Shown: positions 27,247 to 40,127 of the stretch, in pieces | Layout of the letters: the number at the start of each line of letters is the position of its first letter | Position numbering within the stretch: the stretch's first letter is position 1 | NCBI GenBank assembly: GCA_965652395.1 | Contig: CBFGUW010000002.1 | Span: forward strand, 57,583 to 121,582 | Direction: 5' to 3' | DNA length: 64,000 nt | Source of the DNA: an uncultured Saccharospirillum sp. | GTDB lineage: Bacteria > Pseudomonadota > Gammaproteobacteria > Pseudomonadales > Natronospirillaceae | The notes under the pieces: model-generated | Told to the model about the DNA's origin: nothing | Databases searched by the model: none | The model's input: the letters and a program-made list of their open reading frames with translations, nothing else | Translations under genes and position numbers: made by a program

Positions 27247-28494
27247 TCAATTCGCCAGATAATGCTTCCGGGACCACATTTTCATGTCATCCAACCGGCG
27301 CAGACGCTCACCTATTTTTTCCAGCGTGGCCTGCACCGGTAACTCCCCGACCGCCATCTCTTGCAGATGAGCTTCCCAACTGCTCCAAAAACGGCGCATT
27401 TCAGGAATATCCGGCATGGTTTCGCCGGTGGCCGCCATGGCAAAGGTATGGGCGATACGCGGGTTGGCATCCAACTCCGCCATCAGTTGCTTGTTAGCGG
27501 CTGCACCCAGGGGGCGGTCGTCATTCATGGTCTTCACACCTTCGTAAATCACGACGTATTCTTCGAGAAACTGCTTGGCGATGGCCGTATTCGGGCTGTA
27601 TCCATTGATCGCTGCGGATAAAAAGCCGACGAAAGGGCGACCGTGCCCGGCCGTATCGGAAATGGCGGGAAAGCGCGCCAGTTCATAGTCGATACCGGCG
27701 GAGCTGATCTGGTTCCACGCCCAGGGGCCATTGATGATCATGGCAGTATCACCCGCCAGGAAACTTTCCATCATCAGGCTGTAGTTGTCTTCCGGCTCGA
27801 GCACCCCGGTTTCCATCAAACGATGCAGCATCGCCATCCCCTGAATGGCGCCTCGGTTATCCACCCCGACATCCGTCAATTGATACACCTGGTCAACCTT
27901 GCGGAACGAATAACCACCAGCGGAGGTCACCAGAGGCCAGGTAAAATAGGGGGTGGTGTAATCCCACACGATGGCTCGTTTGCCCTGTTCGCGCAGCTTA
28001 CGGTCAAGGGCAATCACCTCGTCCCAGGTGGCGGGTGGGGTGCTTACCAACGCTGGATTGTAGATAAGCGATATGGCTTCCATAGCCACGGGATAGCCGT
28101 AGATATTGTCGCCAACGGTCACCGCATTCCAGGCGAAATCGTGTATGGCATCACGCACTTCGGCCGAGGGCTCCACCGGTTCCAGATAACCTTCGTTTAT
28201 CCAACTGCCAAAGCGGTCGTGCGCCCAAAAAATGATATCGGGCCCTTCCGATGTAGCCGCGAATTTGGTGAAACGGGCGGCGGGGTCGTCCTCCCCTTCC
28301 CAGTCGTCCTGCGTTTGGATAATGACGGGAATACCCGTGGCCTTAGTGAACCGGTCCCCAACGGCTTGGAGCCCTTCGTAGCTTTTATCGTTGTTGATCC
28401 AGACTTCAAGGGCTTCCTGTTCAAACCCGTAGGTGGGAAATATAGTGGTCGTCAAACAGAAAGTGAGTGCGGTGAGCAGAGTGTGGATACGCAA
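27247..28494 (-). CDS. malE: maltose/maltodextrin-binding periplasmic protein
   Basis: Strong similarity along length to E. coli MalE (GPDIIFWAHDRFG, YPVAMEAISLIYN, EPYFTWPLV, GPWAW, RPFVGFLSA); start at MLRIHTLL with GGAG RBS. Confidence 0.8.
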   Translation of the reverse strand: MRIHTLLTALTFCLTTTIFPTYGFEQEALEVWINNDKSYEGLQAVGDRFTKATGIPVIIQTQDDWEGEDDPAARFTKFAATSEGPDIIFWAHDRFGSWINEGYLEPVEPSAEVRDAIHDFAWNAVTVGDNIYGYPVAMEAISLIYNPALVSTPPATWDEVIALDRKLREQGKRAIVWDYTTPYFTWPLVTSAGGYSFRKVDQVYQLTDVGVDNRGAIQGMAMLHRLMETGVLEPEDNYSLMMESFLAGDTAMIINGPWAWNQISSAGIDYELARFPAISDTAGHGRPFVGFLSAAINGYSPNTAIAKQFLEEYVVIYEGVKTMNDDRPLGAAANKQLMAELDANPRIAHTFAMAATGETMPDIPEMRRFWSSWEAHLQEMAVGELPVQATLEKIGERLRRLDDMKMWSRKHYLAN

Positions 28495-28846
28495 CATAAT
28501 CATCTCCAAGGGCCCGATCAACCTCGCTACCGAACCCGTGATCTTTGTTATTCTTATCTTCCATGCCGCCTCGAATGTGATCGAGTCGACAAATTGGAAG
28601 TGAGCGGCCTGCTATTATCCACAGTCGCCTCGCCACCATTCAGTTGAATTAGGGGTTGAACCCACCCGGTAGACCCGGGTGGAGAAAGGGTTGGATCACC
28701 CCATCTAGCATGACAAGGACAGCCATATGCACATAACACCCATGGACGGCGCCGCCTTTCCCCGCTGGTCTGTCACCTCTTACTCAAACACTCATGCCCA
28801 CGTGCCTCTAGGCCTTTTACAGCCTCTGCCTGCACATGCCAAGTTC

Positions 28847-28900
28847 TTACATGTAATACTTTCAATAAATTACATGTAATGATTGACAGCTTACATGTGA
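28847..28900 (+). promoter_or_regulatory. three copies of 10-bp perfect palindrome TTACATGTAA (third TTACATGTGA) at 21-23 bp spacing, overlapping a TTGACA -35 element
   Basis: Sites at 28847-56, 28870-79, 28891-900; TTGACA at 28883-88; immediately upstream of first gene of the PspA/flotillin cluster. Confidence 0.5.
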
Positions 28901-28917
28901 GAGATTAACTTGACGGC

Positions 28918-29559
28918 ATGAACACACGAAAAACATCCGCGGACTATCAACGGGAATACCGTAAACGGTTGCGCGCTCAGGGCCTGGTCAAGAAAGAAGT
29001 CTGGATTCACCCGGAGCACGCAAGGCTGCTCAGCCGCTTGGAAAAGCAGCTGCGCCAGCCGGGTTACGTCAAGGCTGACGCAGCCCCCGCTTTGAACCAT
29101 CAATCGGAGGTGAGCATGAGTAATACCCGAGTCTGGACCACCCACACCCTCTTCGAAGCCCTCAAAGAGGTCGAACCCTTTGCAAACGGCCAAGCCAGCC
29201 TGGAAATGGTGGAAGGCGCAGAGGCCAGCATCCACCTGACTATGCACGAATATGGCGACCTGCCTGTCTTCGTAACGGTTGCAGGCGAACAGATTATTGT
29301 GGATTGCCTGTTGTGGCCCGAATCCGATGTACGTGATCGAGCCTCCTTCAATGAAGAAGTGTTGACCACCCACAAACTCTTTCCGCTATCCACCATCAGC
29401 CTGGACTCTCTGCCGGATGGCGAGCGCTACTACACCATGTTCGGTGCGCTGAGCGCGTATTCGGTTCTGCCCAATATCGTCTTCGAAATCGAAGTGTTGG
29501 CAGACAACGTAATCAAAGCCACCGAAGCCTATGAACGCTTCCTCACCGTGGCCGCTTGA
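28918..29559 (+). CDS. DUF2170 (YjfI-like) family protein candidate, with 66-aa basic N-terminal extension (alternative internal start at 29116 with GGAGGTG RBS)
   Basis: C-terminal 148 aa resemble YjfI-type proteins that precede PspA-paralog YjfJ in E. coli (call from memory, moderate); N-terminal region is Arg/Lys-rich. Confidence 0.45.
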   Translation: MNTRKTSADYQREYRKRLRAQGLVKKEVWIHPEHARLLSRLEKQLRQPGYVKADAAPALNHQSEVSMSNTRVWTTHTLFEALKEVEPFANGQASLEMVEGAEASIHLTMHEYGDLPVFVTVAGEQIIVDCLLWPESDVRDRASFNEEVLTTHKLFPLSTISLDSLPDGERYYTMFGALSAYSVLPNIVFEIEVLADNVIKATEAYERFLTVAA

Positions 29560-29574
29560 AGCCGGAGACTGAAA

Positions 29575-30267
29575 ATGACTATCTGGAGCAAACTGGTAAC
29601 CGCACTTAGGGGCAATGTAAACGAACTGGGCGAGGCGGTGGTCGACAGTCAGGCCATGGTGATACTCGACCAGGAAATTCGCGATGCGGACAACGAACTG
29701 CGGCAGGCCAAATCGTCTCTGGCCGAAATTATGGCCAAGCACAAAGTGGCTCGCGACCATATCGAAACGCTGAACAGGAAAGCGGCCGAATACGAAGGTT
29801 ATGCCTTAAAGGCACTGGAAAAAAATGAAGAGACTCTGGCAGCGGAAGTCGCCGAGAAAATCGCCCAATTGGAAAACGAGACCCGGAACCAGCAGGTTGT
29901 TGTGGATAATTACGCCACCAGCGTGGCGGATTTGCGGAAAGCGGTGCAGCAGGCCGAAGGCAACCTGAAGCGATTGCGGCAGCAGGCCGATACGGTCAGA
30001 GCGACGGAGTCCGTCCAAAAAGCCCAGGCCGCCGTGGCCAGCCGCCACAGCGGCAGCAACGCCAAGCTGCGAACCGCCATGGATTCACTGGAACGCATCA
30101 AACAGAAGCAGGCGGAACGCGGGGCGCGCATGGAGGCGGCTCAAGAACTTGAACGGGAAACCCATGGCGACGAGCTGGCCACCAAGCTGAAAGCCGCCGG
30201 TATTACAGGGGAAAACCACAACGCCGCTGCTGTGCTTGAGCGATTGAAGAAACAACAACAAAAATAA
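29575..30267 (+). CDS. PspA/IM30 family protein (YjfJ-like, ESCRT-III-like superfamily)
   Basis: N-terminal MTIWSKLVTALRGNVNELGEAVVDSQAMVILDQEIRDADNEL closely parallels PspA N-terminus; long coiled coil. Confidence 0.8.
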   Translation: MTIWSKLVTALRGNVNELGEAVVDSQAMVILDQEIRDADNELRQAKSSLAEIMAKHKVARDHIETLNRKAAEYEGYALKALEKNEETLAAEVAEKIAQLENETRNQQVVVDNYATSVADLRKAVQQAEGNLKRLRQQADTVRATESVQKAQAAVASRHSGSNAKLRTAMDSLERIKQKQAERGARMEAAQELERETHGDELATKLKAAGITGENHNAAAVLERLKKQQQK

Positions 30268-30330
30268 CCTGGATTACCAGACAAGGCGGCGCACTCGTCA
30301 CCTTGTCTCATTACCTTAAGGGATCATTCC

Positions 30331-30969
30331 ATGGAAGTATTCATATCCCTCATTACCGCCTACCCGGTGGTACTTTACACTTTCGGGCTGGTGCTGGTTG
30401 TCCTCTACTGGCTTGTTGCCAGCATGGGGCTGCTTGATATAGACGCGCTGGACCTGCCGGACCCCGAATCCGATATGGATCTGGATGTCGGAGCCGAAGG
30501 TTTGGCCGGATTGCTGTTGAAGGTCGGCTTGAACGGCGTGCCGTTAACCATCGTTCTCAGCCTACTGATTCTACTCAGCTGGATATTCAGCTATTTCGCC
30601 AGCTTACTGCTTATGCCCATCGTACCGGGAGCCATCCTTTGGTTTTTCGCAGGGACGGCGATCCTGATCGGCGCGTGGGTGGTGGCCGTTCCCATCACGG
30701 CGATCCTGATCAAACCGCTTAAACCTCTTTTTGCAAAAACCAAGGGCCATTCACGGACATCCGTACTCGGCCAAGTGGCCATCATCCGAACCTCAAGGGT
30801 GGACGAAACCTTTGGCGAGGCGGACTTCAACGACGGCGGCGCGGGCTTGGTGCTGAAAGTGAGGGCGGAAACGCCAAACGAGTTCAAACGAGGTGATCGG
30901 GCTGTCCTGCTCGAGTACCTGGAAACCGACAACGCTTACCGCGTTATCCCCGAAAGGGACTTTTATTAA
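30331..30969 (+). CDS. NfeD-like inner membrane protein (YqiJ/DUF1449-like: polytopic N-terminal region + C-terminal OB-fold)
   Basis: Multiple TM helices followed by soluble beta-rich C-terminus; positioned directly upstream of flotillin as in yqiJ-yqiK. Confidence 0.6.
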   Translation: MEVFISLITAYPVVLYTFGLVLVVLYWLVASMGLLDIDALDLPDPESDMDLDVGAEGLAGLLLKVGLNGVPLTIVLSLLILLSWIFSYFASLLLMPIVPGAILWFFAGTAILIGAWVVAVPITAILIKPLKPLFAKTKGHSRTSVLGQVAIIRTSRVDETFGEADFNDGGAGLVLKVRAETPNEFKRGDRAVLLEYLETDNAYRVIPERDFY

Positions 30970-30992
30970 TCGCTAAAACGGAGACTTAATCT

Positions 30993-33008
30993 ATGGATTT
31001 GTCGCTTCTCATGCCTGTGCTCGTTGGCGCCGGGGTGTTCTTCCTGGTTTTGATGGGCATACTCGCCCTGTTCAAAGCCTTCTACGTTAAAGTTCCCCAG
31101 GGTTGGGCCTTGATTGTCAACGACATGTCGTCGACGCCCAAGGTCTATTTCACCGGCGGCATGGTGTTGCCGGTCATCCACAAAAAAGAATACATGCGGG
31201 TCTCGCTCATCTCTATGGAGATAGACCGCCGCGCGAAAGACGGCCTGATCTGCGCGGACAACATGCGCGCGGACATCAATGTCGCTTTTTACCTCCGTGT
31301 CAATGAAACCGCCGAAGACGTACTGAAAGTCGCCAAAAGCATCGGCGTTGACCGGGCATCCGATAAAGACGCCGTCAACGAACTGTTCGCCGCCAAGTTC
31401 TCCGAAGCACTGAAAACCGTTGGTAAACAGATTGATTTCGTCAAACTGTTTGAAGACCGTCAGTTCTTCCGCGAGAAGATCATCGAAACCATCGGCAACG
31501 ATCTGAACGGCTATGTGCTGGAAGACGTGGCCATCGATTACCTCGAGCAAACTCCTCGAGAGTCGTTGGACCCGAACAATATTCTTGATGCCGAAGGCAT
31601 TCGCAAGATCACCGAGCTGACCGCCAAGCAAAACGTCATCACCAATGAGCTCGAACGCAACCGTGAGTTGGCCATCACCAAGAAGAACGTCGAAACCCGC
31701 GAGGCGATGCTTGAGCTTGAACGCCAGGAAGCCGATGCCACGGCGCGTCAGCAGCGTGAAGTCGAGTCCATCAAGGCACGCGAGGAAGCCGAAACGGCAC
31801 GGGTTCGCGAAGAAGAGCGCCTGCGCTCGGAAACAGCCCGTATCGAAACCGAGAAGCAGCTGCAAATTCAGGAAGAAAACCGCCTGCGCGAAATCGAAGT
31901 GGCTCAACAGAATCGGGCACGGGCTGTGGCCATCGAAGAGGAAAAAGTCACGCGTGCACGCGACCTGGAGATTGTCGCCCGCGAGAAAGAAGTGACACTG
32001 CAACAGATCGACAAAGAGAAGTCGGTCGAGATCGAACGCAAGGACATCGCCAACGTTATCCGCGAACGAGTGGCCGTAGAGAAGACCGTCGCCGAGGAAG
32101 AGGAGCGCATCAAGCAGGTGCGTGAAGTCTCCGAAGCGGAACGCCGCAAGCAGGTGCACTTACTGGCGGCCCAAGCCGAGGCGGAAGAAGCCAAGGTGAA
32201 GGAAGTGACGGCGGCCGAAGCATCGGAAATCAAAGCCAAACACCGCGCCCAGGAAATCAACACCATCGCCCAGGCGGAGTTGGAAGCGGCGGCGAAGCAG
32301 GCCGAGTCGAAGAAGAAACTGGCCGAGGGCATCGAAGCCGAACGCGCGGCTCCAGGGTTGGCCGAGGCGAAGGTGAAGCAAGTGACTGCGGACGCCTTGG
32401 AAAAAGAAGGCCTCGCGAAAGCACGCATCGAAGAGGAATCCGGTCTTGCCCAGGCAAGAGTGCTCGAAGCGCAGGCGGTCGCCAAAGAAAAAGACGGATT
32501 GGCGGAAGCGAAAGTACTGGAAGAGAAACTCCACGCCGAGGCTCAGGGCGAAGAACAAATGGGTCTGGCCCAGGCGAAGGCGGAAAAAGAGAAGGGCTTG
32601 GCCGCAGCCGAAGTCACACGCGAACGCTTCAAGGCGGAAGCCGATGGCTTGGTGGAGAAATTCAATGCCATGAACGCCATGACCGAAGTGGCGCGCGAAC
32701 ACGAAGAGTTCCGCATGAAGCTGGAGAAGGACTACGAACAGAACATGGCGTCCATCGAAGCGAACAAAGAGATCGCGGAAGCTCAGGCCCGCATGCTGGC
32801 CGAGGCGCTGCGGGAAGCGAACATCGATATCGTGGGTGGCCAGGGCGACTATTTCAACAATTTCGCCAAATCGCTTGGGCTGGGTAAAGCCGTGGAAGGG
32901 TTTTCCGCCAAAAGCCCTACCGTGCAGGCGCTGCTGAACAAATTCCTGGGGGGCAACGGTCTGGACGGGGCCATCGCCAAGCCCGAGAAGGACACACTGC
33001 CTAACTAA
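30993..33008 (+). CDS. flotillin (SPFH/band 7 family, YqiK-like) with long Glu/Ala/Lys-rich coiled-coil repeats
   Basis: N-terminal TM + SPFH domain (VKVPQGWALIVN...), periodic GLA(E/Q)AK(V/A) repeats. Confidence 0.85.
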   Translation: MDLSLLMPVLVGAGVFFLVLMGILALFKAFYVKVPQGWALIVNDMSSTPKVYFTGGMVLPVIHKKEYMRVSLISMEIDRRAKDGLICADNMRADINVAFYLRVNETAEDVLKVAKSIGVDRASDKDAVNELFAAKFSEALKTVGKQIDFVKLFEDRQFFREKIIETIGNDLNGYVLEDVAIDYLEQTPRESLDPNNILDAEGIRKITELTAKQNVITNELERNRELAITKKNVETREAMLELERQEADATARQQREVESIKAREEAETARVREEERLRSETARIETEKQLQIQEENRLREIEVAQQNRARAVAIEEEKVTRARDLEIVAREKEVTLQQIDKEKSVEIERKDIANVIRERVAVEKTVAEEEERIKQVREVSEAERRKQVHLLAAQAEAEEAKVKEVTAAEASEIKAKHRAQEINTIAQAELEAAAKQAESKKKLAEGIEAERAAPGLAEAKVKQVTADALEKEGLAKARIEEESGLAQARVLEAQAVAKEKDGLAEAKVLEEKLHAEAQGEEQMGLAQAKAEKEKGLAAAEVTRERFKAEADGLVEKFNAMNAMTEVAREHEEFRMKLEKDYEQNMASIEANKEIAEAQARMLAEALREANIDIVGGQGDYFNNFAKSLGLGKAVEGFSAKSPTVQALLNKFLGGNGLDGAIAKPEKDTLPN

Positions 33009-33026
33009 TCTCCGGAGACAGGGACC

Positions 33027-36000
33027 ATGACCACTGACCATCAGGATGTCAGCCAGCAGGAACAGGATAGCGCTATCGACAAGGCCGTCTCCGAAGGTGG
33101 CGCTTACGATGTTATTCGCAAGCGGCTGCTGGACCAGGGCCGTCAACTGGCCACCGAGGTCGAGCATCTCAATAATGCACGACTGGAGGAGTTTGGAAAC
33201 ACCGGTCAGGAAGTGATCGGTCGCATGAGAGTGCGCACCGAGAACAACTGCGTTGCCCGCGACATTGTGAGAGTCGGTGAAAACCTGCTGTTCGGCTACA
33301 ACGTTTACATCGGGCTGAAGCAGACCACCCGGATCGAAGACGTGTTCGCCCTGTTTCGACTGGTCGACCAGGGCGGCCAGTTCGAAATGGAAGCCGTTTC
33401 TCTGAAGCCCTCCTTCCTAAGCGATCCGGGTTTTATTAAAGACTTCGAAGAACTCTATACCTATTACAAACAAACCAAGCTGATTCAGTTGCTGGTGATC
33501 AACGGCAAGCTCCTGGCGGCGTTCCAGATTGGCGAGCGCGCCTCCGACATTCGTGTTTTCCGTTGGTCGGTGTCAGCGGATGGTCAGGAGGTCCGCTATA
33601 TCGATAACAGAGGCGAGCGGGATATCGCATTGCCTCCGGCTCATGATTTCGAGTGGACCGCCACCACCCGAGACGACATCGTTCATGGCAGCCAGCCTCA
33701 CGTAAATATTCTGGATACCTTGTTCGTCGAAACCCTTCAGGGTGAGCTGACCATCAAGGTTGAAAACAACACGGAAGACGGGCTTGGTCTGTATCGGGAA
33801 CCGGTGGAAGAAGCCAACCAATCGCTGACCGACGCCGAGTTCCACTACGCGCGTCTGGGCGAATTGATCTTACTGAAAGTACTGCCCTACCGGGAGGACG
33901 CACCCCGCCACTTTGTATTCAACAGCCTGACACAAAGCGTTCACCGTATCGACGCACTGGGAGAAGCTTGCCAGCAATTGCCGGAAGACCACGGCATTAT
34001 ATTCCCGGGCGGTTATTACCTGACGAACGGTGAAATGAAACAGTTTGAAAGTAACAGCCAAGGGCTTAAATTTCGCCGGGTCATCAAGTCTCCCAATGGA
34101 GAGGATGTACTCTACGTTTTTTATGAACCCGAAGAAGGCCGGGTAGAACTGTTTCCCTACAATCTGATCAACAAGGCGCTGAGCAACCCGATCGTCGGTC
34201 ATGGTTATGCCCTGGGTGAGGACGGCAAACTGGTAATCTTCACGGCCGAAGGGGAACCCACCCGGGTCCACCCCATGCAGGTGTGGCAGACGCCGTTCTT
34301 TACGGAGGAGTTCGCCAGTGCTCAGCCGCCCAGTCAAAGTTTTTATGGCCGCATCGGCAACCCGGAGCTGGTGCGAGGTATTTCGGAAATCTATTCCATC
34401 GTCCGAACGATCAATCAACAATCGGCCTCCAGCCGCCTCTACAGTGACCTGGCGCAACATTGCCGCAAGGTGTTCGATGCCTATCACTGGCTCGACACCC
34501 AAGAGTTACAGGCCGCCGCTACACTCATCAAAGAAATCGCCAACACGGCCGAGCTGGTACTGGACGAGTTTGAAAAAGTCCAAACCATTCGGGAGCAGGC
34601 GGAAACCGCCCTTCGCGACGCCAGAGCCGACCAGGCCAAATTGATTGGCCAACTGCACATCGATAGCTGGCAAAGGCCGGATCAATACGTCGATGCACTG
34701 GCTCAGCTCAGGCGTCAACGCGGCCGCCTGCTGACCATCCGCGAACTTCGCTACATGGATGTCGCCGAGGTCGATGCCCTTGAAAACGAACTGGTCACAG
34801 CCGATGATCGGGTCGCTTCCGCAACGGCCACCTTTCTGGCCGGTGAAGAAGCGCTGTCACCCTACCTCACCCGACTGAATGAAATACAGGAAGCCATCGA
34901 AGCTGCCGACACTATTGCCGAACTGAAACCGGAACTCGCCACACTGGACCAGCTTTCTGAAGGACTCGACCTGCTTTCCGAGCTCGCCGCCGGGCTAAAG
35001 GTTGAGGATGCCACCCAACATACCCGCATCATCGATTCCATAGGAGAGGTTTACGCCCTGGTAAACCAACGAAAGGCTCAGGCACGCAATAAACAACAGA
35101 ATCTGGGTGGCGCCGAAGCACGCGCTCAGTTTGCCGCTCAATTCAAGTTATTCAGCCAGTCCATCACCAACGCACTCAGCCTGGCACGCACACCCGAACA
35201 AAGTGATGAACAGCTATCCCGACTGCTGGTGCAATTGGAGGAACTGGAAGGGCAGTTTTCGGAGCACGATGAATTTCTGGGCGATATCCTGACCAAACGT
35301 GACGAAATTCATGAGTCCTTCGAGGCCCACCGCCAGCGGTTAATGGATGAACGTCATGCCCGGGCACAATCGCTATTCGATGCCGCCAGCCGCATTCTGG
35401 ACAACTTGCAGCGCCGCGCTAACAAATTCGACAAGGCCGAAGAACTGAACAGCTACTTCGCGGCCGACGCCATGGTGCTCAAGCTCACCGACCTGGCCAG
35501 GAATTTGAGAGTGCTGGACGATGTCGTCAAAGCCGACGATATCGACGCGCGTCTTAAGTCTATTAAAGAGCAGGCGATACGTGGTCTGCGTGACAAGACG
35601 GACATTTTCGAAGAAGGTGGCAAGGTCATTAAACTCGGCCCCCGCCACAAGTTCAGTGTCAATACACAAGAACCAGACCTGACCTTGCTGCCACGCGAAG
35701 ACGATTTGTACCTGCATTTAACCGGCACCGATTATTACGAAGCGCTGAATCACTCTGAGTTGAACGCCTGCCGACCCTTCTGGCATCAGACTCTTGAGTC
35801 CGAAAACGAACAGGTCTATCGCGCCGAATACCTGGCGTCCCGCATCATGGAAGCGGCCGATCGAAACCTGGAAGGGCTCGATATCGAACAGCTGGAGTAT
35901 GCCGCCAGTGACTCCAAGGCACTGCTTGAACTGGTTCGACGTTACAGCGCTCCACGCTACAAGGAAGGTTATGAAAAGGGCATCCACGACGCCGATGCGG

Positions 36001-38282
36001 CCGCCATTCTCGCACGATTAATGCCCGTCAGGGCTCAAGCCGGTTTACTTCGCGTCGCACCCAAAGCCCGGTCTCTCGCCATGCTGTTCTGGGCCGCCGG
36101 TCAGAAAGAGCAACCCCAACGGGATTGGCCACAACGCGCCCGCGCCGCCACCCACATGGCCAGACTGTTTGCTTCGCGCGGCGCCCACGATTTACTGGTG
36201 GCCGAGGCATCCAGACTCCTTACTCAATTCGTCGAGGCGCACCAACTCCCGATGACGGAGCTTGAGTGTCAACGGGCGGCGGACTATCTGATTTCAGAGT
36301 TATCGGAGGAAAGACCCTCCTTTGGCATCAGTAAATACGCTCAGAGGCTGGCGGATGAACTGCGACAAAGGATGGATCAAAACAGCTGGCGCGATTACCA
36401 AAACGCTCTAGCCCAATTGAAAGGCCAGCCGGGTCCGCGCTGGGCGCTGACCGAAGCCTGGTTATTGGCCCTGGTGCGCACCGAAGAACTTGCCGGGCTC
36501 AGAGCCTACATACCCGAGGCGGTTGCACTCGTTAACACCGAGGAACGAATCGACCTGCGCCCGTCGGAAGTCGATCTGTCTTTCGAGGTGACGGGTCTGC
36601 TCGGCCAACACAGTCGAATCAAAAACCAATGCCTGTCGCTCCGGCTTGATGACTTCATCGAACGCCTGGATCACTATCGGGAAGTCACACTGCCCGGCTA
36701 CAGGGCCTATCTTGATTTACGTGGCAAGGTGCTGCATGAAGCAAGAGAGTCCATGCGGTTGGATGAATTCAAGCCTCGGCCTCTCAGTTCTTTCGTCCGC
36801 AACAAGCTGATCAACGAAGCTTACCTGCCCATTATCGGTGACAATCTCGCCAAACAAATGGGCACCGTGGGAGACACCAAACGCACGGACCTGATGGGCC
36901 TGCTTATGATGATCTCACCGCCCGGTTACGGTAAAACCACCCTGATGGAATACGTCGCCAACCGGCTCGGGTTGATTTTCATGAAGATCAATTGCCCCTC
37001 GCTTGGTCACGATGTTCTCTCACTCGATCCGGAACAAGCACCGAATGCCACCGCACGTCAGGAGCTGAACAAACTCAACCTGGCGTTGGAAATGGGTAAC
37101 AACGTCATGTTGTATCTTGACGATATTCAACATACTCATCCAGAGTTCCTGCAAAAATTCATCTCCCTGTGCGACGGCACCCGACGCATCGAAGGCGTGT
37201 GGAAAGGCCGAACGCGGACCTACGACATGCGCGGCAAGAAATTCTGCGTGGTCATGGCCGGAAACCCCTACACCGAATCCGGCGAGGCGTTCAAAGTGCC
37301 CGACATGCTGGCCAACCGGGCGGACATTTACAACTTGGGTGATATTCTGGGCGGCATGGAAGAGCAGTTCGCACTGTCGTTTATCGAAAACTGCCTTACC
37401 TCGAACCCGGTACTGGCGCCACTCGCCACGCGCGAAATGTCGGATTTTTACAGGCTTGCCGAACTGGCCGCCGGTAATAATGTGAGCACCAACGACCTGT
37501 CGCACGACTATTCCGCCGCTGAAGTTGCGGAAATCACCGGCGTATTGAAAAAACTCTTCGTCATTCAGAATGTCGTGCTTAAAGTAAACCAGCAATACAT
37601 TCACAGCGCCGCCCAGGCGGACAAATACCGAACCGAACCGGGCTTCCGTTTGCAGGGTTCCTACCGGAACATGAACAAGATGGCCGAAAAGGTCTCGGGC
37701 ATTATGAACGACGCCGAGCTCAACCGCTTAATTGACGACCACTACCTCGGCGAAGCCCAGCTGCTGACCTCCGGTGCCGAAGAAAACCTGCTTAAACTGC
37801 GTGAAATCAGGGGCATTCTCACGGAACAGGAGACCCAGCGTTGGCAGCAAATAAAAGCCGACTTTCTGCGCAACAAAGCCATGGGTGGTGAAGACGCCGA
37901 CACCGGCAGCCGGGTCGTCGCCCAGTTGGCCGACATCGCCGCGGCATTGCAACAACCGGAAACAAAGGGAGAGCCCAATTGGCAAGCCCCGTTGGCGGCT
38001 CTTGACCAGGGGTTGAAACAAATAGCCTCGGCGCTCACCAAGGCCCAATATCAGGTGGAAGTCATCAACCAGCCGGTGCCAGGAATGGACAAAGTCCTGA
38101 ATACGCTGGCCGATACCGTGGAGAATTCCCTGATGCCGTTGGTTCACGCCATGGAGGGAAAACTCGGTATCGATCTGCGTACACACGACCGTCTGGTCTC
38201 CATCAGTCAGGAAATAAAAGAGCTTAAGCAGGAAGTGATCCGCACCACATCGGTTAAACATCGGCCGGTGGCGGATAGCTGA
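33027..38282 (+). CDS. 1751-aa multidomain protein: beta-rich N-terminal region, long alpha-helical/coiled-coil middle, C-terminal MoxR/AAA_5-type AAA+ ATPase
   Basis: Single uninterrupted ORF; Walker A SPPGYGKTT (~36921-36941), Walker B VMLYLDD (~37111-37125), sensor-1 VMAGNPY, LANRADIY; 18-nt gap after flotillin stop. Confidence 0.7.
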   Translation: MTTDHQDVSQQEQDSAIDKAVSEGGAYDVIRKRLLDQGRQLATEVEHLNNARLEEFGNTGQEVIGRMRVRTENNCVARDIVRVGENLLFGYNVYIGLKQTTRIEDVFALFRLVDQGGQFEMEAVSLKPSFLSDPGFIKDFEELYTYYKQTKLIQLLVINGKLLAAFQIGERASDIRVFRWSVSADGQEVRYIDNRGERDIALPPAHDFEWTATTRDDIVHGSQPHVNILDTLFVETLQGELTIKVENNTEDGLGLYREPVEEANQSLTDAEFHYARLGELILLKVLPYREDAPRHFVFNSLTQSVHRIDALGEACQQLPEDHGIIFPGGYYLTNGEMKQFESNSQGLKFRRVIKSPNGEDVLYVFYEPEEGRVELFPYNLINKALSNPIVGHGYALGEDGKLVIFTAEGEPTRVHPMQVWQTPFFTEEFASAQPPSQSFYGRIGNPELVRGISEIYSIVRTINQQSASSRLYSDLAQHCRKVFDAYHWLDTQELQAAATLIKEIANTAELVLDEFEKVQTIREQAETALRDARADQAKLIGQLHIDSWQRPDQYVDALAQLRRQRGRLLTIRELRYMDVAEVDALENELVTADDRVASATATFLAGEEALSPYLTRLNEIQEAIEAADTIAELKPELATLDQLSEGLDLLSELAAGLKVEDATQHTRIIDSIGEVYALVNQRKAQARNKQQNLGGAEARAQFAAQFKLFSQSITNALSLARTPEQSDEQLSRLLVQLEELEGQFSEHDEFLGDILTKRDEIHESFEAHRQRLMDERHARAQSLFDAASRILDNLQRRANKFDKAEELNSYFAADAMVLKLTDLARNLRVLDDVVKADDIDARLKSIKEQAIRGLRDKTDIFEEGGKVIKLGPRHKFSVNTQEPDLTLLPREDDLYLHLTGTDYYEALNHSELNACRPFWHQTLESENEQVYRAEYLASRIMEAADRNLEGLDIEQLEYAASDSKALLELVRRYSAPRYKEGYEKGIHDADAAAILARLMPVRAQAGLLRVAPKARSLAMLFWAAGQKEQPQRDWPQRARAATHMARLFASRGAHDLLVAEASRLLTQFVEAHQLPMTELECQRAADYLISELSEERPSFGISKYAQRLADELRQRMDQNSWRDYQNALAQLKGQPGPRWALTEAWLLALVRTEELAGLRAYIPEAVALVNTEERIDLRPSEVDLSFEVTGLLGQHSRIKNQCLSLRLDDFIERLDHYREVTLPGYRAYLDLRGKVLHEARESMRLDEFKPRPLSSFVRNKLINEAYLPIIGDNLAKQMGTVGDTKRTDLMGLLMMISPPGYGKTTLMEYVANRLGLIFMKINCPSLGHDVLSLDPEQAPNATARQELNKLNLALEMGNNVMLYLDDIQHTHPEFLQKFISLCDGTRRIEGVWKGRTRTYDMRGKKFCVVMAGNPYTESGEAFKVPDMLANRADIYNLGDILGGMEEQFALSFIENCLTSNPVLAPLATREMSDFYRLAELAAGNNVSTNDLSHDYSAAEVAEITGVLKKLFVIQNVVLKVNQQYIHSAAQADKYRTEPGFRLQGSYRNMNKMAEKVSGIMNDAELNRLIDDHYLGEAQLLTSGAEENLLKLREIRGILTEQETQRWQQIKADFLRNKAMGGEDADTGSRVVAQLADIAAALQQPETKGEPNWQAPLAALDQGLKQIASALTKAQYQVEVINQPVPGMDKVLNTLADTVENSLMPLVHAMEGKLGIDLRTHDRLVSISQEIKELKQEVIRTTSVKHRPVADS

Positions 38283-38824
38283 TGGCGAGATTACGCTCCG
38301 CTTTTATCGCCGTCGCGCTCATTTGGGTGGTTTTCTTGGCCAATGCATTCCTGCCAACAATTGAACTGCGCACTTTCGGCGTACTGCCCCGCGACCCAGA
38401 CCGCCTCTGGGCGGTTCTGACCAGCCCCTTCCTGCACGGTAACTGGCAACATCTGATCGGCAACAGCATTCCGCTGTTCATTTTCAGCTGGCTGGTGCTG
38501 CGCCGGGGGCAGCGACGCTATCTCACGGCCAGTGCCTTCATCATCATTGTGGGGGGGTTGATCCTCTGGCTGATCGGTCGCCCGGCACTTCATATTGGGG
38601 CCAGTGGCTGGGTATTCGGGCTCTGGGGGCTGATCATCGCCGATGGCTGGTATGAGCGCAGCCTGGCAGCGGTGCTGACCAGCCTGGCGGTGATCCTGCT
38701 GTACGGCGGAATGCTCTGGGGGCTGCTGCCCCAGGCCACAGTGAGCTTCGAAGCCCACCTGGGAGGCTTGGTGGCCGGTGTGATGTATTCGGCACTGAGT
38801 CATACCCGGAAACAGAAAAGATGA
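38282..38824 (+). CDS. rhomboid family intramembrane serine protease
   Basis: FLHGNWQHLIGN (TM2 motif), GASGWVFG (GxSG catalytic Ser), HLGGLVAG (catalytic His); ATG overlaps stop of upstream ATPase (ATGA... coupling). Confidence 0.75.
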   Translation: MARLRSAFIAVALIWVVFLANAFLPTIELRTFGVLPRDPDRLWAVLTSPFLHGNWQHLIGNSIPLFIFSWLVLRRGQRRYLTASAFIIIVGGLILWLIGRPALHIGASGWVFGLWGLIIADGWYERSLAAVLTSLAVILLYGGMLWGLLPQATVSFEAHLGGLVAGVMYSALSHTRKQKR

Positions 38825-38897
38825 AAGCAATGACATCCCTCAATGACGTTGCTTCCTTCGGGCTGTTATCATAGCCGCCATTCCCAATTACCCGAGT

Positions 38898-40127
38898 GTG
38901 CTCATGGAGCCCTTTGACATTGCCATTGTCGGCGGCGGCATGGTGGGTCTGACCCTGGCATCCGCACTTCGCCCCGCACTGGACGCCGGTGCCCGGCTGG
39001 TTTTGGTCGACCCCGCGCCTCAGCCGACCGATTCCGTCCCACAATCGCCCAGTTTCGATGACCGGGCCACCGCCCTTTCCTCCCTCACCTGTACCGCGCT
39101 GGACCGCCTCGGCCTGTGGTCCCGCCTGGAACCACACGCCAGCGCCATCAACTGGATTGAAGTGAGCGATCGCGGTCATGCCGGTTACCAGGTGATGGAC
39201 GCCAAGGAATTTCCGGGCCATCCCTTTGGCTCTGTCGTGGCCAACCGGAACCTGGGTGTGGTGCTCTGGCAGGGTTGTCAGGATCTGCCTTCGGTGGAGT
39301 GGCGTTTCGATACCAGTGTCGAACGCCTTGAACCCGACAATGAATACCAACAACTCCAGCTAAGCTCCGGCGAAACCCTTCGCGCCCGTCAGGTGTTTCT
39401 CTGCGATGGCGGTCGTTCGCCGCTGGCTCGCCGCCTGGGCATTCAATATCGCCAGCAGGATTATCAGGCCAGCGCGCGCGTGGCCTCCGTTCGCACCGAG
39501 GAACACCACGGCGGCCGGGCGTTCGAACGCTTCACTGAGGACGGCCCGATTGCACTGCTGCCCTTCGGCGAGTATTCAGCTCTGGTCTGGACTGTTCCGG
39601 ATCGCCTGCTTTCCCGCATACGGGCTATGAGCAAGACTGAACAGCTTGGCTGGCTCAACGAGCGTTTTGGCCAACGTCTGGGGCGCATCACTGACATCAG
39701 CGACCCCTCAAGCTACCCCCTTATTCTGCGCCAATGCCGGGAACCGGTTCGCCACCGGTTGATGGTGCTGGGAAACTCCGCAGCCACGCTCCACCCGGTC
39801 GCGGGGCAAGGCTTCAATCTCGCCATGCGTTCCGTGCTGAGAACCGCCGAGCGTATTAACGCCACCCTGCTCAATGCCCGGGACCCTGGTGATTATCGGG
39901 GCCTGCGCGACCTCGCCGCAGAGATTGATCGCGACCAACGGCTGACCGCCACCCTGTCGGATGGCCTGGTGCGTACCTTTGCCAATCCACAGCCCTGGTT
40001 CCAACTGGGGCGCAACCTCGGTCTGAACATGCTCGACCGTCACCCTTTACTCAGCAAAGCCTTCACCCTGACCAGCATGGGGGTACTGCAAGGAGCCCCA
40101 CTACCCAAAGGAGATGCCGTTCTATGA
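38898..40127 (+). CDS. ubiH: FAD-dependent ubiquinone biosynthesis hydroxylase, UbiH/UbiF/UbiI(VisC)/Coq6 family
   Basis: [17 protein letters not shown]-binding GxGxxG; family architecture; E. coli-like ubiH-ubiI tandem. Confidence 0.6.
   Translation: MLMEPFDIAIVGGGMVGLTLASALRPALDAGARLVLVDPAPQPTDSVPQSPSFDDRATALSSLTCTALDRLGLWSRLEPHASAINWIEVSDRGHAGYQVMDAKEFPGHPFGSVVANRNLGVVLWQGCQDLPSVEWRFDTSVERLEPDNEYQQLQLSSGETLRARQVFLCDGGRSPLARRLGIQYRQQDYQASARVASVRTEEHHGGRAFERFTEDGPIALLPFGEYSALVWTVPDRLLSRIRAMSKTEQLGWLNERFGQRLGRITDISDPSSYPLILRQCREPVRHRLMVLGNSAATLHPVAGQGFNLAMRSVLRTAERINATLLNARDPGDYRGLRDLAAEIDRDQRLTATLSDGLVRTFANPQPWFQLGRNLGLNMLDRHPLLSKAFTLTSMGVLQGAPLPKGDAVL

Follow-up and report, generated by a model that had tools for sequence, protein, structure and literature searches.

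What system is encoded by a run of six membrane-associated genes from an uncultured Saccharospirillum sp., and does the rhomboid protease gene at its end belong to it? The genes lie in a 64,000-nucleotide (nt) stretch of contig CBFGUW010000002.1, referred to here as the window, whose own numbering is used throughout. Judged by its sequence, the region holds a rhomboid-bearing variant of the Bac-type operon, with genes 1–5 orthologous to bacABCDE of Pseudomonas aeruginosa. The Bac operon is known already; new here are the link to a rhomboid, an N-terminal domain (N-domain) of BacA with its candidate operator, a putative leaderless promoter and a possible short BacA isoform.

In P. aeruginosa, PA3732–PA3729 were called bac (“biofilm-associated cluster”) by Mace et al. 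2008 (PMC2587700). The full set bacABCDEF corresponds to PA3732–PA3727, or PA14_16140–16200 (PMC2587700; PMC10948618), and reverse transcription PCR detects one six-gene transcript spanning PA14_16140–16200 (Wallart 2024, PMC10948618). Osmotic induction of bac and biofilm and rhamnolipid phenotypes have been described (PMC2587700), and two of the products are known as PaFlo3 (PA14_16180) and a “short NfeD” (PA14_16160; PMC13086221). Compared with the P. aeruginosa locus that served as our orthology reference (L084), BacA, BacB, BacC, BacD and BacE of the window are 55%, 57%, 49%, 70% and 59% identical over their full length, with gene order and orientation alike. BacA also matches the NCBIfam equivalog NF050185, “biofilm formation regulator BacA”, over residues 4–213 (317 bits, cutoff 300). 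Both loci carry TTACATGTGA boxes and the same promoter geometry, in P. aeruginosa upstream of a 206-amino acid (aa) BacA. They differ in the sixth gene, which encodes a 230-aa PLDc_2 (HKD) protein in P. aeruginosa and a rhomboid in the window, where tblastn finds no phospholipase D (PLD) homologue within the 64 kb. The P. aeruginosa protein, BacF (PA14_16200, L084:19539–20231), belongs to the PLDc_2/HKD superfamily, a family not named by Wallart et al., and its gene starts 18 nt after bacE.

A preliminary description of this DNA, made from the letters alone, held that the gene combination does not match any named system. That view must be abandoned: genes 1–5 correspond to bacABCDE, and the neighborhood also appears in Ravi et al. 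2024 (PMC11237479), as a CesT/Tir-PspA pair with a transmembrane band-7 flotillin, a YqiJ/YuaF-like protein, an AAA+ protein bearing a beta-propeller and, in some cases, a PLD hydrolase. All five protein types recur here, and our survey reproduces the wider spread of abbreviated operons without PspA that those authors describe (PMC11237479). In their account PLD is optional, and there is no mention of a rhomboid, a BacA N-terminal domain or an operator. The gene list of the preliminary description was right, as open reading frames (ORFs) and coordinates bear out, with “NfeD-like” as its weakest call. A Pfam check of each protein finds DUF2170, PspA_IM30, Rhomboid and DUF3686/DUF7902/AAA; the flotillin and the NfeD-like protein are recognized by profiles only. 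Its proposal that the block fuses pairs resembling yjfIJ and yqiJK is also borne out by Pfam and by profile matches to YqiK and YqiJ: BacA falls in the DUF2170/YjfI family, BacB in PspA/IM30, and BacD and BacC resemble YqiK and YqiJ. In E. coli, yjfI-yjfJ and yqiJ-yqiK instead lie apart from each other as two loci, neither of which includes a BacE-type ATPase or a rhomboid, and YjfI-type (short) proteins, unlike BacA of the window, are without the N-terminal domain.

Which of these genes form the constant part of the system? A genome scan with a 22-sequence BacE alignment returned at least 585 relatives, from which 80 loci were kept, 79 of them with BacE; locus contents were determined by ORF calling and iterated hidden Markov model searches, and counts of loci below refer to these 79 unless another sample is named. 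The flotillin/AAA+ module is very widespread: a single scan yields at least 585 genomes, and grouping at 50% identity leaves 455 clusters (E ≤ 1e-30). BacC, BacD and BacE occur together in every locus with enough upstream sequence, across Gamma- and Betaproteobacteria, Myxococcota, Actinomycetota and one Clostridia metagenome-assembled genome. The preliminary description was thus correct in seeing a conserved membrane-associated module. The missing linkage in other genomes that it named as counter-evidence is not what the survey shows, the triad being linked wherever upstream sequence exists. The BacA-BacB (DUF2170-PspA) pair, in contrast, is present in 39/79 loci and divergently oriented in four of the 39. 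With C-D-E invariant and A-B facultative, the constant partners of BacE are the flotillin pair and not PspA, which corrects the earlier picture of an ATPase joined to both.

BacB matches PF04012 (PspA_IM30) over residues 2–229 with 169.7 bits against a gathering score of 33.9 (E = 9e-50) and is not the canonical PspA equivalog (TIGR02977, 25 bits against 243). In BacD an N-terminal transmembrane segment is joined by an SPFH domain and by a coiled coil that is long and rich in Ala and Glu, and BacC, encoded directly upstream, contains hydrophobic segments. The BacC and BacD proteins of the window have no Pfam match up to E = 10 and no PDB sequence match. Family profiles were therefore the route to their homology: with 31–32 homologues each, profile-profile comparison (hhalign) aligns the BacD family to E. 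coli YqiK over 415 columns (99.9% probability, E = 8e-33) and the BacC family to E. coli YqiJ (92.6%, E = 4.5e-7), which is regarded as an NfeD homologue and partner of the SPFH2 protein YqiK (PMC2636767). Pfam Band_7 is matched by 5/31 BacD family members, and BacC has no match in Pfam or PDB.

BacE consists of DUF3686 (Pfam, 2e-200), a helical region that includes DUF7902, a single AAA+ module and a helical C terminus. Across 22 diverse homologues there is no variation in its Walker A (SPPGYGKT) and Walker B (LYLDDIQH) motifs or at N1413 and R1431. The label “MoxR-type” given to this module by the preliminary description is not established; no VWA-domain protein, the MoxR-type partner, is found among the six proteins and ten flanking ORFs. 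BacE has no PDB match by sequence, and its nearest structural neighbors are generic AAA+ remodelers. Database entries name such proteins “DNA repair ATPase”, and Pfam describes DUF3686 as “ATPase involved in DNA repair”, so that BacE could be a repair enzyme and the cluster no membrane machine. We regard this as highly improbable: we found no experimental basis for the name, Pfam detects no nuclease, helicase or DNA-binding domain in BacE, its invariant neighbors are two membrane proteins of the SPFH/NfeD type, and its structural neighbors point to remodeling. The label was rejected as unsupported.

The sixth protein of the window matches PF01694 (94.3 bits against 22.6, E = 1e-26) and is not a rhombosortase (TIGR03902, 36 bits against 84). 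Residues H52, H57, N61, G106-x-S108-G109 and H159 are invariant and were aligned to GlpG, with H57xxxN61 as the HxxxN motif; H52, H57, N61, S108 and H159 correspond to GlpG H145, H150, N154, S201 and H254. With its catalytic residues invariant, the rhomboid should be an active protease. It belongs to a clade of minimal rhomboids of 168–199 aa, from which nine members were sampled, the window copy included. Six of the nine lie in BacE clusters. Four of these clusters are of the A-B-C-D-E-F type (window, L088, L089 and L091, the last with an added PLD gene), L088 and L089 being further copies of the six-gene block. Providencia (L083) has C-D-E-F, and in Aliikangiella (L090) the rhomboid comes first, as F-C-D-E. 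A seventh member (L082) lies directly after DUF2170-PspA in a yjfIJ-type operon. This operon, from the P. fluorescens group, reads DUF2170-PspA-rhomboid-Ion_trans_2-DUF2491-DUF350-DUF1190-GSP_synth.

The remaining two clade members stand alone, without bacA-E: one in S. salsuginis (L081), 72% identical and in the syntenic position beside the same solute-binding-protein gene, and one 76% identical (L087). These copies, together with an adjoining rhomboid in only 11/79 BacE loci, would fit a resident housekeeping gene that merely sits beside a five-gene module. We consider such independence unlikely. In the window the bacE stop and rhomboid start overlap by 1 nt, and 4-nt overlaps or very short gaps occur in other genera; rhomboid and Bac genes are neighbors again and again in Pseudomonadales, Cellvibrionales and Enterobacterales, whether A-B is present or not, and remain so despite the F-C-D-E order of L090; and most sampled clade members are in BacE clusters, with another in the PspA operon of L082. 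A linkage that outlasts changes of gene order and operon type argues for a functional tie between rhomboid and module. We found no paper linking a bacterial rhomboid to PspA, YqiK or NfeD genes.

Membrane-active proteins of several kinds occupy the position after bacE, which behaves as an exchangeable slot. Six of the 11 loci with an adjoining rhomboid are ordered A-B-C-D-E-rhomboid-PLD, and a PLD gene lies downstream of bacE in 16/79 loci. In Xanthomonadales (L020, L026, L029, L030, L033, L036 and L057) a TelA-like gene directly follows bacE, with a full TelA domain in L057 (E = 4e-71), and in Comamonas (L038 and L039) bacE is followed by a gene for a 1150-aa MscK-like mechanosensitive channel. 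A slot that varies by lineage among membrane-active enzymes resembles the effector slots of defense systems, and the preliminary description had raised a defense role. In an anti-phage system of the abortive-infection type, the sensor of infection would be BacE, a large beta-propeller ATPase, and the last gene would supply a membrane-damaging effector. Phage induction also speaks for the idea, PA3728–PA3732 belonging to a set of 17 genes that every tested phage infection induced (PMC12041424). PADLOC 2.0, however, gives no meaningful match (two weak coiled-coil matches for BacB, E about 2e-4), the flanks hold ABC-transport and ubiquinone-hydroxylase genes and no defense island, the Bac core is widespread and apparently vertically conserved, and C-D-E-only loci have no enzyme in the slot. 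Induction of bac by osmotic shock and its biofilm and rhamnolipid phenotypes count against it as well, and we judge a defense system quite unlikely.

A rhomboid protease encoded with an SPFH scaffold and an AAA+ protein recalls the SLP2-PARL-YME1L proteolytic hub of mitochondria (Wai 2016, cited in PMC7966987), where the three kinds of protein share one inner-membrane assembly. BacE differs in having no protease domain or transmembrane segment and an architecture unrelated to YME1L. The likeness is an analogy only.

How is the operon controlled? The preliminary description had the module start at position 28847, which is not the start of a coding sequence but of the first of three TTACATGTAA-type boxes; the first coding sequence begins at 28918. 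With up to one mismatch, such boxes occur three times in the 64 kb, where 0.51 would be expected by chance, and all three lie within 55 nt. We aligned 28 long-form bacA loci on the ATG. An ACATGT core lies at −24 to −28 from the ATG, mostly at −25/−26, in 25/28 of them, P. aeruginosa included, and a second core lies at −46 to −50 in most, against a background of 0.007 per 70 nt. The cores flank a TTGA-type −35, present in the consensus of 25 aligned loci, and are followed by a TAnnnT hexamer that ends 5–7 nt before the ATG with no Shine-Dalgarno (SD) motif between. In the window the putative −10 ends 6 nt before the ATG, and this spacing and the missing SD motif suggest a leaderless bacA mRNA. 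Transcription of the operon is thus probably from a sigma-70 and not a sigma-54 promoter, with an mRNA that is leaderless.

The boxes co-vary with the N-domain of BacA. They are absent from 34/35 C-D-E-only loci, and loci whose BacA is short, YjfI-like and without this domain carry (T)GACAT-N4-6-ATGTC(A) palindromes instead, often in two or three copies (L023, L025, L034, L040, L045, L052, L053, L061, L063, L064, L067 and L068). No stand-alone homologue of the domain is encoded near the short-form bacA loci. A paralogous operon with a diverged N-domain (L082:8400–8560) has a perfect palindrome, CTCACGCGTGAG, in two copies upstream. The presence and absence of boxes and this co-variation, although correlative, suggest that the N-domain is what binds the operator and that the mRNA is leaderless; BacA would then probably be a DNA-binding protein that represses its own operon. 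Repression by BacA is supported indirectly, by proteomics of a P. aeruginosa bacA transposon mutant in which the other five Bac proteins accumulate 6- to 13-fold (PMC10948618). A PspA-family protein encoded with its own regulator or partner is also seen in E. coli PspF-PspA and in B. subtilis pspA-ydjGHI, an operon that includes an SPFH protein (PMC8581546). Unlike PspF-PspA, the operon of the window appears to be controlled through repression of a sigma-70 promoter and not through a sigma-54 activator. PspF, PspB and PspC are not found among the six proteins and ten flanking ORFs.

BacA is composed of the basic N-domain, a variable linker and a DUF2170/CesT-like domain (Pfam DUF2170, 2e-51). 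The crystal structure of BacA is CesT-like (Wallart 2024, PMC10948618). What corresponds to residues 70–211 of BacA in the window is all that the structure (PDB 8q8o, 146 aa) and the legacy annotation of PA3732/PA14_16140 include; both are without the conserved N-terminal 60 residues (L084:10001–10621 compared with window 28918–29559). For P. aeruginosa BacA, current NCBI models give a length of 206 aa, the legacy annotation one of 146 aa (16 kDa). Any sigma-54 site within about 180 nt upstream of the short P. aeruginosa start falls inside the long ORF. The highly conserved N-domain is present in 29 BacA homologues, each time fused to DUF2170, with the consensus K-S/T-S-A-x-Y-Q-R-x-x-R-x-R-L-R-E-Q-G-L-V-K-K-E-V-W-I-x-P-E and with S7, R15, R19, G22, K25, K26, W29, E42 and R46 invariant. 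Its profile yields chance-level matches only in the PDB.

Within bacA of the window, an SD-like motif precedes an in-frame ATG at the boundary between linker and DUF2170. Such an ATG is present in 23/26 long-form genes, in 20 of them together with an SD-like motif. This combination, at 20/26, compares with 3.9% of control windows inside the same genes, a contrast for which a binomial P is indicative only since the sequences are related. The conserved internal start makes a second, chaperone-only BacA isoform plausible, and the predicted product would be the 16-kDa protein that was earlier annotated and crystallized. An interaction between BacA and BacB has been reported as unpublished data cited in PMC10948618 and as an AlphaFold (AF2) prediction in PMC13092808.

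Considered together, these data tilt us, by a modest measure, towards a Bac-type envelope-stress operon that is repressed by BacA, has C-D-E as its membrane core and an active rhomboid as its sixth product. Transcription would start from the sigma-70-type promoter and give a leaderless mRNA. Full-length BacA would bind TTACATGTRA palindromes through its N-terminal basic domain and repress the operon, as co-occurrence and co-variation suggest, while its CesT-like domain would bind the PspA-like BacB and so make repression depend on how much BacB is free, in the manner of PspA and PspF. By the same analogy, membrane damage would draw BacB to the membrane and relieve repression; a short isoform from the internal start may, more speculatively, modulate it. 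BacC and BacD would build an SPFH membrane microdomain or cage, which the soluble beta-propeller/AAA+ protein BacE could remodel, or from which it could extract clients, at the expense of ATP. The gene after bacE would add an accessory that is membrane-active and can be exchanged (for a rhomboid, PLD-like, TelA-like or MscK-like protein), the rhomboid presumably cleaving membrane proteins presented in the microdomain.

Several observations weigh against this picture. A generic promoter scan did not flag the proposed bacA promoter, and PMC2587700 and PMC10948618 propose a sigma-54 promoter for P. aeruginosa bac, relative to the short ORF. The AlphaFold model of the N-domain (helix, extended segment, helix) is of moderate confidence, with a predicted local distance difference test score (pLDDT) of 71, and has no fold match; weak matches to PF11455 (MazE-like antitoxin), found in 15/27 N-domains and in themselves favorable to the regulatory part, lie below threshold (best E = 7.6e-4). 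De-repression in the P. aeruginosa bacA mutant could be transposon read-through, paFlo3 (bacD) mutants of that species have small phenotypes only (PMC13086221), and the stand-alone copies show that the rhomboid is not strictly dependent on the module.

A bolder joint reading, which we offer tentatively and hold to be doubtful as a whole, sees in the Bac core a platform for membrane quality control that is driven by ATP, carries a catalytic “head” open to exchange (rhomboid, PLD, TelA-like or MscK-like) and is governed by BacA as a new kind of autoregulator with two products. Such a platform would be a bacterial counterpart of the mitochondrial SPFH-rhomboid-AAA+ hub. Its leaderless full-length repressor would combine an antitoxin-like DNA-binding domain with the CesT-like domain, and the internally initiated chaperone-only isoform would titrate the repressor or BacB.

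In P. aeruginosa the Bac system affects virulence as well as the formation of biofilms and the production of rhamnolipids. If the sigma-70 promoter and leaderless mRNA are true, they change the design of regulation experiments relative to the sigma-54 proposal, and the BacA of the PAO1/PA14 annotation, like that of the crystal structure, is cut short of its probable DNA-binding domain. Physiological roles of bacterial rhomboids are scarce, and a dedicated clade tied to PspA/flotillin modules provides a candidate role.

The six co-directional ORFs fill 28918–38824, separated in gene order by 15, 63, 23 and 18 nt, with the bacE/rhomboid overlap (TGATG) at the last junction. The short gaps, the overlap and the conserved operator-like architecture are indirect signs that the window operon, too, may give a single transcript under negative control by BacA. 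Ribosome-binding sites of the GGAG type precede genes 2, 4 and 5, and none precedes gene 1. An Rfam scan of the region gave no match.

Table 1. Positions, in window numbering, of the promoter elements, genes and protein domains of the Bac-type operon
Feature	Position (nt)	Strand	Description
Box 1	28847–28856	+	TTACATGTAA, perfect 10-bp palindrome
Box 2	28870–28879	+	TTACATGTAA, just upstream of −35
Putative −35	28883–28888	+	TTGACA, sigma-70 type
Box 3	28891–28900	+	TTACATGTGA, in −35/−10 spacer
Putative −10	28906–28911	+	TAACTT (TAnnnT), 6 nt short of ATG
bacA	28918–29559	+	213 aa; DUF2170/CesT-like
BacA N-terminal basic domain	28918–29067		aa 1–50
BacA DUF2170/CesT-like domain			aa 73–209
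Putative internal start in bacA	29106–29110 (GGAGG); 29116–29118 (ATG)	+	GGAGG, N5, ATG (Met67); putative 147-aa CesT-like-only protein
bacB	29575–30267	+	230 aa; PspA/IM30 (ESCRT-III-like), YjfJ type
bacC	30331–30969	+	212 aa; multi-pass membrane protein, C-terminal soluble domain; YqiJ/short-NfeD-like
bacD	30993–33008	+	671 aa; YqiK-type flotillin
bacE	33027–38282	+	1751 aa; soluble, DUF3686 + DUF7902 + AAA
BacE DUF3686	33147–34487		aa 41–487
BacE DUF7902			aa 608–691
BacE AAA+ module	36894–37376		about aa 1290–1450
Rhomboid gene	38282–38824	+	180 aa; minimal-core rhomboid intramembrane serine protease, PF01694

Upstream the operon is flanked by sugar-ABC-transporter genes, one of them divergent, and downstream by ubiH-like genes (ubiquinone-hydroxylase, FAD-monooxygenase). 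The ubiH-like genes, from 38898 onward, were considered as operon members and rejected, since none of the related loci has them and the rhomboid gene is followed by a promoter-like site. This site (38843–38872; ATGACG-18-TATCAT, preceded by a TG) falls after the rhomboid stop and before the ubiH-like gene that starts at 38898, and it suggests that the FAD-monooxygenase genes are transcribed separately. On the upstream side, an ORF of 334 aa on the + strand (27643–28647) has no Pfam match, overlaps the solute-binding-protein gene on the opposite strand (27247–28521) and is most likely a spurious antisense ORF. About the first 90 nt of intergenic sequence beside this divergent gene (window 28615–28700) are conserved with S. 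salsuginis (L081:9880–9975) and include a direct repeat, GGGTTGAACCCACCC / GGGTTGGATCACCCC, and an inverted repeat, CCACCCGG/CCGGGTGG. In S. salsuginis the rhomboid gene follows this conserved stretch directly, so that bacA-E and their promoter constitute a clean presence/absence difference between close relatives.

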